NCBI RefSeq assembly: GCF_000341895.1
Contig: NC_020409.1
Span: 1,920,001-1,952,000 of the forward strand
From: Pseudodesulfovibrio piezophilus C1TLV30
GTDB lineage: Bacteria > Desulfobacterota > Desulfovibrionia > Desulfovibrionales > Desulfovibrionaceae
Length of the DNA: 32,000 nt
Direction of reading: 5' to 3'
Numbering within the stretch: the stretch's first letter is position 1; the number at the start of each line of letters is the position of its first letter. The notes under the pieces were generated by a model. That model saw nothing but the letters and a program-made list of their open reading frames with translations, was not told where the DNA came from and searched no databases. Of this stretch, positions 694 through 10,224 are shown piece by piece. The translations under genes and the position numbers were made by a program.

Positions 694-769
694 TGGTGGG
701 CCAGCCAGGATTCGAACCTGGGACCGACCGGTTATGAGCCGGTGGCTCTGCCAACTGAGCTACTGGCCC
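694..769 (-). tRNA. tRNA with CAU anticodon (elongator tRNA-Met, or tRNA-Ile2 if C34 is lysidinylated)
   Basis: The reverse complement is GGGCCAGTAGCTCAGTTGGCAGAGCCACCGGCTCATAACCGGTCGGTCCCAGGTTCGAATCCTGGCTGGCCCACCA. It folds as a cloverleaf: 7-bp acceptor stem, GCTC/GAGC D stem, ACCGG/CCGGT anticodon stem, loop CTCATAA, CCAGG/CCTGG T stem with TTCGAAT loop, and an encoded CCA. It lacks the three G-C pairs of an initiator anticodon stem. The C4-G69 and C5-G68 pairs are also seen in E. coli tRNA-Ile2, so identity is ambiguous. Confidence 0.93.
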
Positions 770-2575: not shown

Positions 2576-3583
2576 TCAGGTCAATTTTGCCTTGGACAAA
2601 ACAGAAATCAGCATAGTCAGCATCTCTGGATCGTGTGCGGTCTTACGACTTTTAATGCGTGTCAAAGCTTCGAATGGGGTCAGCTTTTTAACAAGGGATG
2701 TTCCGCGAATAAGGTTGTCATATTCATTACATAGGGAAAGGACCTTGACATAGGACGGTAGCATCTCTCCATGAGCACCAGAAGGATACCCCGACCCATC
2801 CATGCGCTCATGGTGGAAGAGAATACATTGCAGCGTCTCCTGAGGCAGCGGCAGGGAAGAACAAACCCCCACACCGAGGGCAGGATGGGATTCGACCAAT
2901 TCCCTTTCCTCCTTGTTCAGGCTTTCTCTGTGCCGGAAAAAAAGGGTCTCTGGCAACTCCAACTTCCCGATATCGTGAAACATGGCCCCCATACCGACTG
3001 CGACCAACAGGTCTTCATCCTTCACATATGTGTTCATCACGCTCAGAGTCATGACCATGACTCCGATTCCGTGCAAAAAGACTTCCTCACCCTCCGCAAT
3101 AAACCGGGTCAACTCCCGTATGGCATCAGCCCGCGCCAGGAATTTCAAACTGCTGTTGACCAACTTCTTGATTTTGAGGAACTCCCGCTTACCGGTCCTC
3201 TTGGGCAAATCGCGAGTAAAAGCCTCACGGGCCAGAGAAACCGCAGCATCATTCCAGACCCGTGCCCGCTCTGCAACAGGGATGTCTTCGTCATATAAAA
3301 GTTGGAGGAGATTCTCCTGAAGATAGGAAGTATAGGCAGCGTAATCTTCAACTTTAACATACAAATGATCCACGCCGAGACGAGTCAGCCGACTTTTGTG
3401 AATGTCAGCCAGGAGCACGCCCTTTTCCGCATAAAGGACATAGGTTTCCCCCTGCTTGAGAAACAGGGCAAACCCAACTCTCCGCGACGGGATGACCATG
3501 AAAGGTGAAATTTTAAAGACCCCGAACCGTTTCTTGCGAACAGGCTTGGCTTCGTCTACCGAGGCACTGTTTTCCATATGCAT
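2576..3583 (-). CDS. HD-GYP domain protein (putative c-di-GMP phosphodiesterase) with an uncharacterised N-terminal domain
   Basis: The motifs MFHDIGKLELPE...ESHPALG...FHHERMDGSGYPSG give the HD and HHExxDGxGYP signatures. I prefer the start at 3583 (MHMENSA) because AGGGA lies 4 nt upstream. The track ORF start at 3634 has no RBS. Confidence 0.9.
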   Translation of the reverse strand: MHMENSASVDEAKPVRKKRFGVFKISPFMVIPSRRVGFALFLKQGETYVLYAEKGVLLADIHKSRLTRLGVDHLYVKVEDYAAYTSYLQENLLQLLYDEDIPVAERARVWNDAAVSLAREAFTRDLPKRTGKREFLKIKKLVNSSLKFLARADAIRELTRFIAEGEEVFLHGIGVMVMTLSVMNTYVKDEDLLVAVGMGAMFHDIGKLELPETLFFRHRESLNKEERELVESHPALGVGVCSSLPLPQETLQCILFHHERMDGSGYPSGAHGEMLPSYVKVLSLCNEYDNLIRGTSLVKKLTPFEALTRIKSRKTAHDPEMLTMLISVLSKAKLT

Positions 3584-3643
3584 ATTTCCCTGGGGCGCCG
3601 AATCGTCACGGCCCCGAGGTGCATTGCAAATCATTCGGGCAGA

Positions 3644-3745
3644 CTCTTGGCAACCCGGCTATCTTGTATCCCGGCATTATTGCCGAAAAAGACCCGTGGC
3701 TTTCCGTCCCCGCCTCACGACGGGTTTGGCTTTCTCTTCGGCAGG
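3644..3745 (-). ncRNA. Candidate c-di-GMP-I (GEMM-I) riboswitch aptamer in the leader of the HD-GYP gene
   Basis: The minus-strand RNA 3736->3644 is GAGAAAGCCAAACCCGUCGUGAGGCGGGGACGGAAAGCCACGGGUCUUUUUCGGCAAUAAUGCCGGGAUACAAGAUAGCCGGGUUGCCAAGAG. Blocks GCCAAA, a 6-bp hairpin CCCGUC-GUGA-GGCGGG with a GNRA loop, GACGGAAAGCC, and AGCCGGGUUGCC line up with the Vibrio Vc2 aptamer as I recall it (GGCAAA, CCAUUC-GAAA-GAGUGG, GACGCAAAGCC, AGCGGGGUUACC). No covariance-model search was run. Confidence 0.5.
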
Positions 3746-3823
3746 CAACATACCCGCCGAAGCCCCTCCTGTAAACGGGGTAAAGAACCTGCTTATTTTA
3801 TTGGGCTTTAGAAGTAGACAAAC

Positions 3824-4288
3824 CTAATAAAGACTTTGTTGGGCAAGAAAGACCTTCCGGGCATGGTCAAGAGATTCATTTTTCAGGTAATCACGAGTAA
3901 ATTCAAAACAGATTTCATCCGCATCCACAAAAGCCATGACCACATCGAACTCTACATCTTCGACGATTCTCATCGAATCGATGACCGTATCCACGTCTGT
4001 GGACGGCGACAACTCAAGACTTTCCATCGTCTCAATCGCCTTCTCGATACCATGGACAGCTTCGGAAGTGACAGGGGCCTCCAGTCGAATTTCGGACAGG
4101 GAATCCCTGATTTCCGTCAAGGCCCGAAGGTGAAGTACTTCATCTTCCTTGATACCGGACAGGCATTGAACAAACGCTTCATTCTTCCCGAAGTGGGTTT
4201 CCAGCCTATCATAAAATTCATAGGCAAGCGTTTCCATTTTCATGGCTTTTTCGATGAGTTGCCCAAGTGTCATTTGAGAATTCAGCAT
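3824..4288 (-). CDS. Ferritin-like / rubrerythrin-family four-helix-bundle protein
   Basis: The 154-aa helical protein begins LIEKAMKMETLAYEFYDRL and contains an ExxH motif (EDEVLH), as in ferritin-like diiron domains. The second metal motif is not obvious. Confidence 0.6.
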   Translation of the reverse strand: MLNSQMTLGQLIEKAMKMETLAYEFYDRLETHFGKNEAFVQCLSGIKEDEVLHLRALTEIRDSLSEIRLEAPVTSEAVHGIEKAIETMESLELSPSTDVDTVIDSMRIVEDVEFDVVMAFVDADEICFEFTRDYLKNESLDHARKVFLAQQSLY

Positions 4289-4402: not shown

Positions 4403-5416
4403 TCAGCCAAGCCAGTTCATAACAAAGCCAGTGGTTATCGCCATACCGAAAACTGAGCAGAGGAAAGCACTAATCACAGGCCACCGAAACAGCCCCTTGA
4501 GCATGATCATCTCGGGAAGACTGGCTCCGGCCCCTCCAATGACAAGCGCAACCACCGCCCCCAGACTCATCCCTTTACCCATGAGCGAGAGACCGATAGG
4601 CAGCAGAGTCGAAGCACGCACATACAAGGGAACACCTATCAAGGCGGAAAATGGTACGGCCAGGGCATTGTCTGCACCAGCATACCGAGCAACCACATCG
4701 GAGGGAACAAACCCGTGTAGCAGAGCACCGATAACAAGACCAAGGGTGATCAATGGCATGAGTTTGAGAAACTGCCCTAAGGCATCGTGAAAAATCCTAT
4801 TCCACCGCGAAGGCTCCCCCTTGGCTGGATTTTGAACACCTGCCGGAGCCATGGGCAGTATCGTAACAGAGGTATCGCCTCCACCGCCAGGCGTGGATGT
4901 GGAGCAGGCACAGCCGCCGAGGCTTCCCCGATCCAAAAGATCATCCTTAATGAATCTCTGAAAATTCAAGCGGTGCAACCCCCACCCCGCAAATATGGCC
5001 AACACCAAGGCCATGAACACATAGAGAGCTGTTGTCTTTGCTCCGAACAGGGTCAGAAAAAGCCCGACAATGATCGGATTAACCAAAGGGGACGTGAACA
5101 GGAACGTCATGGTCGGTCCAAATCCTGCCCGCGCCTTGAGCAGGCCGACTGTCATCGGGATGGTCGAACAACTGCAAAACGGTGTAATGGCCCCCAGGAC
5201 AGCCCCTGCCAGATACCCTCGGCCCTGCCGTTCTGACAGGATGGATTTGATTTTCTCCGCAGGAACGAACTCGTTGATAACCCCAACCAGAAAGCTGATC
5301 CCCACAAAAAGCACAGCCAGTTCAACAAACGCAAAGACAAAGAAGTCAGCCGAGCCTGCAAGCTTCACCACCCACGCAGAATTGCCCGGACCAACCAGAG
5401 TTTGAAAATAATTCAT
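4403..5416 (-). CDS. ArsP/DUF318-type permease (PF03773-like)
   Basis: This is a polytopic membrane protein with the family signature ITPFCSCSTIP and a central Gly/Cys-rich loop (GGCACSTSTPGGGGD). The RBS GGAGATGAG lies directly upstream of the ATG at 5416. It sits immediately downstream of an ArsR-family gene. Confidence 0.85.
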   Translation of the reverse strand: MNYFQTLVGPGNSAWVVKLAGSADFFVFAFVELAVLFVGISFLVGVINEFVPAEKIKSILSERQGRGYLAGAVLGAITPFCSCSTIPMTVGLLKARAGFGPTMTFLFTSPLVNPIIVGLFLTLFGAKTTALYVFMALVLAIFAGWGLHRLNFQRFIKDDLLDRGSLGGCACSTSTPGGGGDTSVTILPMAPAGVQNPAKGEPSRWNRIFHDALGQFLKLMPLITLGLVIGALLHGFVPSDVVARYAGADNALAVPFSALIGVPLYVRASTLLPIGLSLMGKGMSLGAVVALVIGGAGASLPEMIMLKGLFRWPVISAFLCSVFGMAITTGFVMNWLG

Positions 5417-7455: not shown

Positions 7456-10224
7456 ATGACCAAATCCGCACCGAATCATTCCATCCATATAGAAGGCGCC
7501 CGCCATCACAATCTCAAGGACCTGACCCTCGACATCCCCCGCGACAAGCTCGTGGTGGTCTGTGGGCCATCCGGGTCGGGCAAATCAACTCTGGCCTTTG
7601 ACATCGTCTATGCCGAAGGCCAACGCCGCTACGTGGAGTCTCTCTCCGCCTATGCCCGCCAGTTCCTGCCCCAGATGGACAAACCGGATGTGGACAAGGT
7701 GGAGGGGCTTTCCCCCGCCATATCACTGGAGCAACAGACCGCGACGAGAAATCCCCGATCCACCGTGGGAACCGTCACCGAGGTCTATGATTTTCTGCGA
7801 GTCTTCTATGCCAGGCTCGGCAAATTCTATTGCCCGAAGTGCGGAAAGCCCATCGAGGCTCAGACCACCGACCAAATAGTGAAAACAATCCTCGCCATGG
7901 AAGAGGGCACCAAACTCATGCTGCTCGCCCCCTTGGTCGAGCACCAGAAGGGAACGCACAAGGATCTCTTTTCCAAGCTTAAAAAAGATGGGTTCGTCCG
8001 TGTCCGTGTCGGCGGCCAAATCTATCCCATCGATGAAGTGCCCGACCTGGAAAAGCACAAGAAACACACCATCGACTTGGTAATAGACCGTCTCGTCATC
8101 AAGGACGGCATCAAAAAACGCCTTGCCGATTCCGTGGAACTCGCCCTGGAACACGGCGAGGAACGCATGATCGTCACCGTGGTCGGTGGCAATGCTCCCG
8201 GCGACACCTTCATGTCCACGCTTTCAACATGCCCGGCCTGTAAAATATCCATGCCGCGCCTCACCCCACAGCTCTTTTCCTTCAACTCGCCTCAGGGAGC
8301 CTGCCCCACCTGCAACGGCATTGGCTCGGTGGAATATTTCGAACCGGACCTTATTTCACCCAACAAGGGACTCTCCCTCAACCAAGGCGGCGTCATCCCC
8401 TGGAAGTCCGCCTACCGTCAGGAACAATACGGCCCGCAACTCAAAAAGTTGGGCAAAAAACACGGATTTACGCTCGACACCCCCCTGTCCGACTACACCA
8501 AGGACGGCTGGGACGCCCTCTTCCACGGGTGTTCCGAAACCGGCTGGCCCGGCATCGTGCCCATCCTCGAATACGGACAACAACAATCTGGCGTCTGGGA
8601 CCACTGGACCGCTCGCTACAAGCAATCAACACCCTGTCCGGCCTGCCATGGCGCACGACTGCGCCCTGAGGTTCTGGCTGTCCGCGTGGCCGATAAAAAC
8701 ATGTTCGAATTCGCCTCCATGTCCATCCAACGGGCACTGGACTGGCTCAACGGACTGAATTTCACCGGCCAGGAAACCCTCATCTCCGAACCATTGCTCA
8801 AAGAACTGACCCACAAGCTTGGCTTCATGGTCAATGTCGGACTTGAGTACATCTCCCTTGGCCGCAACATGAGCACGCTCTCCGGTGGCGAAGCCCAGCG
8901 TATCCGCCTCGCTTCCCAACTCGGTTCCGGCCTGGTTGGTGTCACCTATGTCCTCGACGAACCGTCCATCGGTCTGCACCCCCGAGACAACCAACGGCTC
9001 ATCGATACACTCCGCTCACTCCAGACGCGTGGCAACACCGTCCTCGTGGTTGAACACGATGAACCAACCATTCTTGAAGCGGATCATGTCATCGAAATCG
9101 GCCCCAGCTCGGGCTGGCTTGGCGGTGAAATCGTTTTCCAGGGGCCAGTAGACAAACTGCTCAAGGCAGACACGCTGACCGGCAAATACCTGCGAGGTGA
9201 TATCGTCATTGAACCACCGGAAACGCGCCGCACGCCCACAGATTCGATTGTTATCAAGAATGTCGAGACCAACAACCTCAAGAATCTCGATGTGGATATT
9301 CCTCTTGGTGTCATGACCTGCGTGACCGGCGTGTCTGGCTCGGGTAAGTCGTCCCTTGTCATGGACTCGCTCTACAAGCATCTGCAATTGTTCAATGGGA
9401 ACAAGGCGGACAACCCCGGAAAGATCGGTGGAATCGAGGGCCTCGACAAAATCGAAAAGGTCATATCCATCGACCAAACGCCCATTGGCAGGACTCCTCG
9501 CTCCAACCCCGCCACCTACACCAAGATTTTCGATGAGATCAGGAAAATATTTACCGGCTCCAAAGAGGCCCGAACCCGAGGCTACAAACCTGGCCGATTC
9601 TCCTTCAACGTCAAGGGCGGGCGATGCGAGGCCTGCAAGGGGGACGGACAAATCAGGGTGGAAATGCATTTCCTGCCCGACGTCTACGTCACCTGTGAAA
9701 CCTGCAAAGGCAAGCGCTACAACGCCCAGACTCTCGAAGTGGAATACAAGGGCAAGAATATCGCTGATGTTCTCGACATGACAGTACGGCAGGCCCGCGA
9801 ATTCTTTGCCAACCATCCTCCGCTCATGCGGCGGCTTGACGTGCTCTCCGAAGTCGGCCTCGACTACATCAAGCTCGGACAGGCAGCCACCACGCTCTCC
9901 GGCGGCGAAGCCCAGCGTATCAAGATTTCACGCGAACTCGGCAAACGGAACCTGCCCGGCGCACTCTATATCCTTGATGAACCGACCACAGGCTTGCACA
10001 TGCATGAAGTCGGCAAGCTCATCCGGGTACTCCATGCCCTGGTGGACAAAGGAGCCACCGTCATCGTCATCGAACATAATACCGATGTCATAAACGGGTC
10101 CGACCACGTTATCGATCTCGGCCCTGGCGGCGGAGAACACGGCGGGCAGATAGTCGCCTCCGGCACCCCGGAAGAGATCATCGCCAACCCGAATTCCGTG
10201 ACCGGGGCATTTCTGAAAAAATAA
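7456..10224 (+). CDS. uvrA: Excinuclease ABC subunit A
   Basis: The 922-aa protein begins IEGARHHNLKDL. It has two ABC modules (GPSGSGKSTLAF and GVSGSGKSSLV Walker A; two LSGGEAQR signatures) and zinc-finger CxxC pairs. This is an unmistakable UvrA. Confidence 0.98.
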   Translation: MTKSAPNHSIHIEGARHHNLKDLTLDIPRDKLVVVCGPSGSGKSTLAFDIVYAEGQRRYVESLSAYARQFLPQMDKPDVDKVEGLSPAISLEQQTATRNPRSTVGTVTEVYDFLRVFYARLGKFYCPKCGKPIEAQTTDQIVKTILAMEEGTKLMLLAPLVEHQKGTHKDLFSKLKKDGFVRVRVGGQIYPIDEVPDLEKHKKHTIDLVIDRLVIKDGIKKRLADSVELALEHGEERMIVTVVGGNAPGDTFMSTLSTCPACKISMPRLTPQLFSFNSPQGACPTCNGIGSVEYFEPDLISPNKGLSLNQGGVIPWKSAYRQEQYGPQLKKLGKKHGFTLDTPLSDYTKDGWDALFHGCSETGWPGIVPILEYGQQQSGVWDHWTARYKQSTPCPACHGARLRPEVLAVRVADKNMFEFASMSIQRALDWLNGLNFTGQETLISEPLLKELTHKLGFMVNVGLEYISLGRNMSTLSGGEAQRIRLASQLGSGLVGVTYVLDEPSIGLHPRDNQRLIDTLRSLQTRGNTVLVVEHDEPTILEADHVIEIGPSSGWLGGEIVFQGPVDKLLKADTLTGKYLRGDIVIEPPETRRTPTDSIVIKNVETNNLKNLDVDIPLGVMTCVTGVSGSGKSSLVMDSLYKHLQLFNGNKADNPGKIGGIEGLDKIEKVISIDQTPIGRTPRSNPATYTKIFDEIRKIFTGSKEARTRGYKPGRFSFNVKGGRCEACKGDGQIRVEMHFLPDVYVTCETCKGKRYNAQTLEVEYKGKNIADVLDMTVRQAREFFANHPPLMRRLDVLSEVGLDYIKLGQAATTLSGGEAQRIKISRELGKRNLPGALYILDEPTTGLHMHEVGKLIRVLHALVDKGATVIVIEHNTDVINGSDHVIDLGPGGGEHGGQIVASGTPEEIIANPNSVTGAFLKK

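Follow-up and report, generated by a model that had tools for sequence, protein, structure and literature searches.

A probable class-I c-di-GMP riboswitch in the 5' untranslated region of an HD-GYP phosphodiesterase gene of Pseudodesulfovibrio piezophilus

The HD-GYP gene and its neighborhood

The window, by which we mean the whole 32,000-nt stretch of the P. piezophilus C1TLV30 genome that was analyzed, carries on its minus strand a gene for an HD-GYP phosphodiesterase of 335 amino acids (2576..3583). The product is a complete HD-GYP enzyme, which contains the Pfam HD_5 domain (PF13487, 83.5 bits) with the HD and HHExxDGxGYP motifs of HD-GYP phosphodiesterases and matches the database protein P0001 exactly. 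Its orthologs, which are 55–71% identical and come from Pseudodesulfovibrio species, are named HD-GYP or c-di-GMP phosphodiesterases, and the residues of the HDxGK and HHExxDGxGYP motifs (H203, D204, H257, H258, E259, G265, Y266, and P267) were invariant in 34 orthologs. A gap of 240 nt separates the start codon of this gene (3583) from the stop of the upstream ORF (3824). A mechanically called minus-strand ORF reaches into the gap up to an in-frame ATG at 3634; the start supported by homologs is the ATG at 3583, which yields the 335-residue product of P0001, and the gap can therefore be regarded as non-coding, as the first-pass annotation of this DNA had stated. Three in-frame ATGs on the minus strand (3634, 3583, and 3577) precede the coding region, and the one at 3583, which is used by the database protein, lies only 3 nt after the Shine-Dalgarno (SD)-like AGGGA. 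The ATG at 3577 has the more usual SD spacing of 9 nt and may be the real start.

The order of genes around the orthologs comprises a divergent uvrA, optional zf_CopZ and rubrerythrin-like genes, the HD-GYP gene, a convergent methyltransferase gene, and a DUF4911 gene. In Pseudodesulfovibrio genomes, either 250–400 bp separate the HD-GYP gene from the divergent uvrA upstream of it, or one to two small genes lie between them. In the window, uvrA (7456..10224) is separated by about 3.9 kb from the HD-GYP start and by about 3.2 kb from the upstream 154-residue ORF; a gene for an ArsP-type permease (4403..5416) and other ORFs lie between that ORF and uvrA, and the segment 3824..7455 looks like a local insertion or rearrangement. 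A tRNA-Met gene (anticodon CAT, 70.3 bits) is present at 694..769 on the minus strand, and a tRNA of the same printed sequence, also with 70.3 bits, was found downstream of the HD-GYP locus in three of the orthologous loci (L088, L089, and L102), which supports the synteny.

The aptamer and its conservation in orthologous leaders

The whole window was scanned with the Rfam covariance models at their gathering thresholds. As a result, two matches were obtained, the tRNA-Met and an aptamer of the c-di-GMP-I class at 3645..3739 on the minus strand, within the gap. The latter matched RF03167, termed c-di-GMP-I-GGC, over the full length of the model (positions 1–80) with 69.9 bits against a gathering score of 59, and the E value was 8.6e-15 in the whole-window scan and 1.1e-16 in the scan of a 401-nt region. 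The element thus belongs to the c-di-GMP-I clan (Rfam CL00126), and its resemblance to that clan is far beyond chance. Because cmscan displays only the best-scoring member of a clan, the score shown for the window is that of RF03167; one further, lower-scoring clan match exceeded its own gathering score in the window, its family not being displayed by the scan. Two sibling leaders with near-identical cores (L083 and L100) scored 60.4 and 59.8 bits with RF01051, the c-di-GMP-I family itself, for which the gathering score is 35. A permissive scan of 3500..3900 returned nothing credible beyond the clan match, and c-di-GMP-II (RF01786), which had been suggested as a negative control, gave no match there even at E <= 10. 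The RNA strings quoted in the first-pass annotation are all present on the minus strand of the gap, where the blocks are, in order, GAGAAAGCCAAA, CCCGUC-GUGA-GGCGGG (3724..3709), GACGGAAAGCC, ACGGGUC, CGGCA-AUAA-UGCCG (3685..3672), and AGCCGGGUUGCC (3660..3649).

Between 3739 and 3645, the aptamer adopts the fold of two parallel helices that is typical of the family. The first hairpin, which corresponds to P2 of the Vibrio cholerae Vc2 aptamer and to P1b of the Rfam model, is CCCGUC-GUGA-GGCGGG (3709..3724, minus strand) with a GNRA tetraloop at 3718..3715. The second helix, corresponding to P3 of Vc2 (3651..3701, minus strand), was delineated by alignment, folding, and pair counts; it pairs AGCC-A-CGGGUC with GAU-AG-CCGGGUU, includes the bulged G3659 (G83 of Vc2), which is the partner of C3706 (C44 of Vc2), and carries the distal hairpin CGGCA-AUAA-UGCCG at 3685..3672. 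C3706, G3659, and A3702/3701 were invariant in our core alignment of the orthologous aptamers (alignment A2). The fold of RF01051 is thus present with its two covariation-supported helices at a three-way junction, the C44-G83 contact, A48/A49, and the GNRA loop. The junction is closed by a single G-C pair, in which C3649 (C93 of Vc2) pairs with G3736 (G14 of Vc2) as the sole remaining Watson-Crick pair of P1, and A3647 corresponds to the bulged A95; the roles of the G14-C93 pair and of A95 were taken from PMC3764141. Two of the three P1 pairs of the model are non-standard here, so that a P1 helix closing the junction was not found, in accordance with the earlier remark that no convincing one could be identified. 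The RF01051 consensus structure itself contains no P1, and P1 is therefore not what decides membership in that Rfam family.

The same aptamer was found 5' of orthologous HD-GYP genes in 15 distinct Pseudodesulfovibrio-type leaders, which were collected through a metagenome scan and exact-protein look-ups. Base pairs were counted on alignment A2, which holds 15 aptamers with the variable distal stem excised, and 98.9% of the cells were paired. Compensatory changes were observed in five pairs, four of them in the first hairpin, in which four of the six pairs are compensated and 100% of the cells are paired. None of 500 shuffles reached the observed values, and slid controls were just 27–54% paired. 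The first-pass annotation had named conservation and covariation among orthologous leaders as a check of its proposal, and both were found. The length of the excised distal stem ranges between 7 and 63 nt among the orthologs, with insert sequences that are unrelated and most of which can form a hairpin when examined by eye; the lengths are not multiples of three, which indicates a non-coding region.

At three orthologous loci (L084, L085, and L099), the promoter TTTACA-N17-TATGTT is retained about 110 nt before the HD-GYP start, with neither an aptamer nor any Rfam match, and this sub-clade has either lost the riboswitch or never acquired it. Relatives of the HD-GYP protein that were retrieved by the genome scan at identities of 43% or less were set aside as paralogs or distant homologs, not orthologs, and no GEMM match was present among the best 20 of them.

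Compared with the Vc2 aptamer and RF01051, the window element has the same two-helix architecture with a GNRA-capped first hairpin, the same junction strands (AAAG-NC-AAA ... GAC-GN-AAA-GCC ... AGCCGGGUUGCC), and the same G20, A47, A48, A49, C92, C44-G83 contact, and G14-C93 apex pair, and it likewise lies in the 5' untranslated region of a gene of c-di-GMP turnover. It differs in that the pair 21:46 is C:G, in place of the consensus G:C. This is the swap that had tentatively been read as a single G-C to C-G exchange, and it is real, the columns of the pair being marked as compensated by cmscan and carrying C:G in 15 of the 15 orthologous aptamers. The tetraloop is GUGA, whereas the RF01051 consensus has a GAAA loop with a CUAAG/UAUG receptor, which is missing here. 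Unlike in Vc2, P1 is reduced to one Watson-Crick pair, the aptamer is predicted from the promoter position to lie at the 5' end of the mRNA, and the expression platform is unrelated. These traits of the clade, namely the flipped 21:46 pair, the GUGA loop without a receptor, the minimal P1, and the aptamer at +1, do not exceed the variability known for the family.

Promoter, expression platform, and regulatory output

A consensus scan of 3450..3950 indicated a single promoter-like site, the sigma-70-type TTTACA-N17-TATGTT (3775..3747, minus strand), with a -35 hexamer TTTACA at 3770..3775 and a -10 hexamer TATGTT at 3747..3752, both of which are also supported by conservation. The pattern TTTACA-N17-TATNNT was present in all 16 leaders with a 17-nt spacer of non-conserved sequence, and G20 lay at a fixed 43–47 nt from the first nucleotide of the -35 hexamer in the 15 leaders measured, the value for L103 being excluded as a mis-hit. 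The different promoter proposed previously (TTTGTC-N16-TAAAAT) was absent from the consensus scan and was not seen in the orthologous leaders read, and it should be replaced by this site. Since the promoter lies directly 5' of the aptamer, its geometry places the transcription start at about 3739, 7–8 nt past the -10 hexamer and about 9 nt before G20, and transcription from this promoter would produce an mRNA in which the aptamer begins essentially at the 5' end. An upstream hairpin, CUUCGGC..GCCGAAG (3762..3736), was considered as a part of the RNA or as P1 and was rejected, as orthologs lack it and it falls within the promoter spacer, the sequence of which is not conserved.

Downstream of the aptamer, folding indicated a hairpin (3578..3624, minus strand) with the core GGGGCCG/CGGC-CCC (3615..3593), in which the AGG of the SD (3591..3589) and the UG of the first AUG are paired. 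The SD-like AGGGA itself (3587..3591, minus strand) aligns with CCCAGG(G)AGGGAG, which is conserved ahead of the ATG in orthologs, and the hairpin GGGGCCG..CGGCGCCCC adjoining the AGGGA, to which the first-pass annotation had drawn attention, is present as described. When folded alone, the hairpin had a free energy of -19.8 kcal/mol with a z score of -1.46, which was not significant against shuffles, and it recurred in folds of the full leader. It is a plausible candidate for the expression platform. A C-rich, anti-SD-like element beside the SD was seen in most orthologs when the printed leaders were read by eye, and the sequences of the platforms are poorly conserved.

We also considered other types of expression platform. 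No terminator-like site was present on the minus strand in a scan of 3450..3950, and in two orthologous leaders (L086 and L088) hairpins are followed by weak U-rich tails; such U-tailed hairpins are limited to a few orthologs, and an intrinsic terminator was therefore rejected as the general platform. In Vc2, ligand binding is usually taken to be relayed through P1, and the reduction of this helix to one G-C pair here is a point against the canonical riboswitch reading. When the accessibility of the SD was compared between the locked and free states of the aptamer, no consistent direction of change was observed in 16 leaders, and the unpaired probability of the SD in the window was 0.31 with the aptamer locked and free alike. 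The aptamer 3' strand was no more complementary to the platform than in shuffles (mean z of -0.49 in 16 leaders), for which reason a switching helix formed by these two segments was rejected; the best duplex of this kind ended 12–19 nt before the AUG in 10 of the 16 leaders. An alternative 15-bp helix (3696..3679 with 3653..3636) was likewise rejected, as it occurred in one minimum-free-energy fold and was not consistent in orthologs by eye.

Based on the lack of a terminator, the inclusion of the SD and first AUG in a hairpin, and the anti-SD-like elements in most orthologs, control of translation initiation would be the most likely output, with somewhat better than even chances. The main alternative is that a genuine c-di-GMP aptamer acts through another output, either mRNA stability by 5'-end-dependent decay or Rho-dependent termination, as suggested by the position of the aptamer at the extreme 5' end and without P1. 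This would be consistent with an aptamer that begins about 9 nt into the predicted transcript, with thermodynamic models showing no ligand-linked change at the SD, and with the lack of an intrinsic terminator; however, the embedding of the SD and AUG in structure in the window and most orthologs is the usual signature of translational control, and we consider this alternative rather unlikely. With respect to the sign of translational control, there is a slight structural lean toward ligand-OFF, because the aptamer has a 3' strand rich in G that shows complementarity to the stretch immediately preceding the SD, and ligand-ON would be favored by the logic of feedback.

Ligand-site nucleotides, variant signatures, and the likely ligand

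The nucleotides of the ligand site were located on the minus strand as G3730 (G20 of Vc2, model position 10, invariant in alignment A2), A3703 (A47, model position 37, invariant in 15 of 15 orthologs), A3702/3701 (A48/A49, invariant), and C3650 (C92, model position 75, C in all of the 15 orthologs but L103, which has U). In Vc2, the ligand's G-alpha base has G20 as its pairing partner (PMC5888326), A47 intercalates between the two ligand bases at the ligand site (PMC5888326, PMC3764141), and C92 forms a Watson-Crick pair with the G-beta base (PMC5888326, PMC3764141). Of the 17 nucleotides listed as highly conserved in c-di-GMP-I (PMC3764141), 16 were mapped by hand onto the window (G20, C22, A23, A25, G32, A35, G42, C44, G45, A47–49, C59, G79, G83, and C92), the equivalents of G32 and A35 belonging to the tetraloop, and one, G90, was not placed; the G14-C93 pair and A95 of the same source map likewise. 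That the G aligned with the ligand-specifying G20 is retained, which was held to favor c-di-GMP over cGAMP, is borne out by G3730 and its invariance in the clade.

The consensus lines of three Rfam families differ exactly at positions 20, 47, and 92 in Vc2 numbering, with GAC in RF01051 (..AAaG-GC-AAA-[hairpin]-GAC-GC-AAA-gCc .. UgCC), GGC in RF03167 (..AAAG-GC..GAC-GC-GAA-gCc .. UGCc), and UAU in RF03168 (..AaaU-gC..GaC-Gc-AAA-gCc .. UGUC), and we infer the meaning of the names GGC and UAU from these three lines. The two variants were reportedly defined by Weinberg et al. in 2017. The window carries G3730, A3703, and C3650 and thus has the GAC signature of c-di-GMP-I. The G at position 47 that marks the GGC variant is replaced by A in the window and all 15 orthologs, the U at both 20 and 92 that marks the UAU variant is replaced by G and C, and the A at 20 that marks the cGAMP riboswitch (GEMM-Ib) is replaced by a G that is invariant in the clade. 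Judged by its signature, the element is not a variant of the GGC, UAU, or cGAMP type.

These observations bear on other readings of the element. It might be a member of the GGC class, a subgroup that was split off c-di-GMP-I for a changed ligand-site nucleotide, and perhaps sense something other than c-di-GMP. RF03167 is indeed the top family for the window (69.9 bits, gathering score 59) and for 12 orthologous leaders, with similar helices (CCCGNCG..AG.CGGGGACG, CCACGGGNC, and AGCCGGGNUGCC); however, the A at Vc2 47 is that of the parent class, the position being an explicit mismatch in the alignment (model position 37, G in the RF03167 consensus and A in the window, as in RF01051), the siblings with long stem insertions (L083 and L100) score best on RF01051 with about 60 bits, and models within a clan tend to recognize the same sequences (PMC9943018). 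Membership in the GGC class is accordingly very improbable. Because the window signature is G, A, C and position 37 disagrees with the RF03167 consensus, the GGC label is, on the basis of the aligned nucleotides, a score artifact of a narrow model built from similar sequences. The label was assigned through clan competition in Rfam to the window and 12 related loci, though all carry A and not G, and picking the best clan member thus mislabels the clade; variant calls should therefore be checked at the signature positions.

The other readings concern the ligand and the functional state. The leader could sense 3'3'-cGAMP, or both c-di-GMP and cGAMP promiscuously, like the GEMM-Ib riboswitches of Geobacter, which would imply that the encoded HD-GYP enzyme is a cGAMP phosphodiesterase. 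In favor of this, the two kinds of riboswitch share one fold, cGAMP is degraded by some HD-GYP enzymes, and the C92U change in a sister species would favor adenine at the beta site; however, specificity in GEMM-Ib and in the engineered Vc2 mutants G20A and G20A/C92U resides at positions 20 and 92, the window retains G at 20, the cGAMP-selective change being G20A (PMC7288161), and C92 is kept in the window and 14 of 15 orthologs, with only the sister leader L103 carrying C92U. Sensing of cGAMP is thus improbable, though marginally less so than membership in the GGC class. The flipped C:G pair 21:46, the single-pair P1, and the aptamer at the +1 end of the mRNA could also mean that the Pseudodesulfovibrio clade is a distinct GEMM-I sub-type, of which the specificity or read-out is possibly non-canonical, for example through stability of the mRNA 5' end, and the C92U change in L103–L107 would then be a natural step toward a different dinucleotide ligand within one gene lineage. 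This is also unlikely, if slightly less so than sensing of cGAMP. Finally, a chance resemblance or a decayed, non-functional relic might be supposed, as the absence of the aptamer at three orthologous loci (L084, L085, and L099) indicates that it is dispensable in some lineages; however, this is scarcely credible and already contradicted by the conservation data, since the clan match has an E value of 1e-16, the nucleotides of ligand and tertiary contacts are invariant over 15 leaders in which the proteins are just 55–71% identical, and the stems have changed in a compensatory manner between orthologs.

It is therefore very probable that the HD-GYP gene has a canonical class-I (GEMM-I) c-di-GMP riboswitch as its 5' untranslated region, as had been proposed in the first-pass annotation, with a full-length clan match, canonical G20, A47, and C92, and a fold backed by covariation. 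As every ligand-contact nucleotide of Vc2 is kept, c-di-GMP is, as far as the sequence indicates, the most likely ligand, and it is also the substrate of the enzyme encoded downstream. Sensing of c-di-GMP by the leader together with its degradation by the encoded enzyme would form a direct feedback loop. GEMM RNAs were first tied to c-di-GMP through their association with the genes of its synthesis and degradation (PMC7266159), and our search of the literature for such riboswitches in combination with HD-GYP in Desulfovibrio found no papers. The element is of an already known kind, belonging to an RNA family that is well known and being unexceptional within it. The Pseudodesulfovibrio sulfate reducer thus appears to couple a c-di-GMP sensor to a c-di-GMP-degrading enzyme in a one-step feedback on a second messenger of biofilm formation and motility; beyond this wiring and the lesson for annotation, it is a routine riboswitch instance.

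One item that possibly deserves follow-up is the C92U change in the sister species. In L103 (1855..1929), as well as in L104–L107, U replaces C at Vc2 92 (GUUGUCAAAG), with G20 and A47 kept, and the best Rfam match of L103 is the UAU family RF03168 with 68.4 bits. The sequence carrying U92 is identical in four independent assemblies and is thus not an assembly error, and C92 is kept in L091, the closest relative of L103. The change may represent a natural shift of ligand preference within an orthologous leader.
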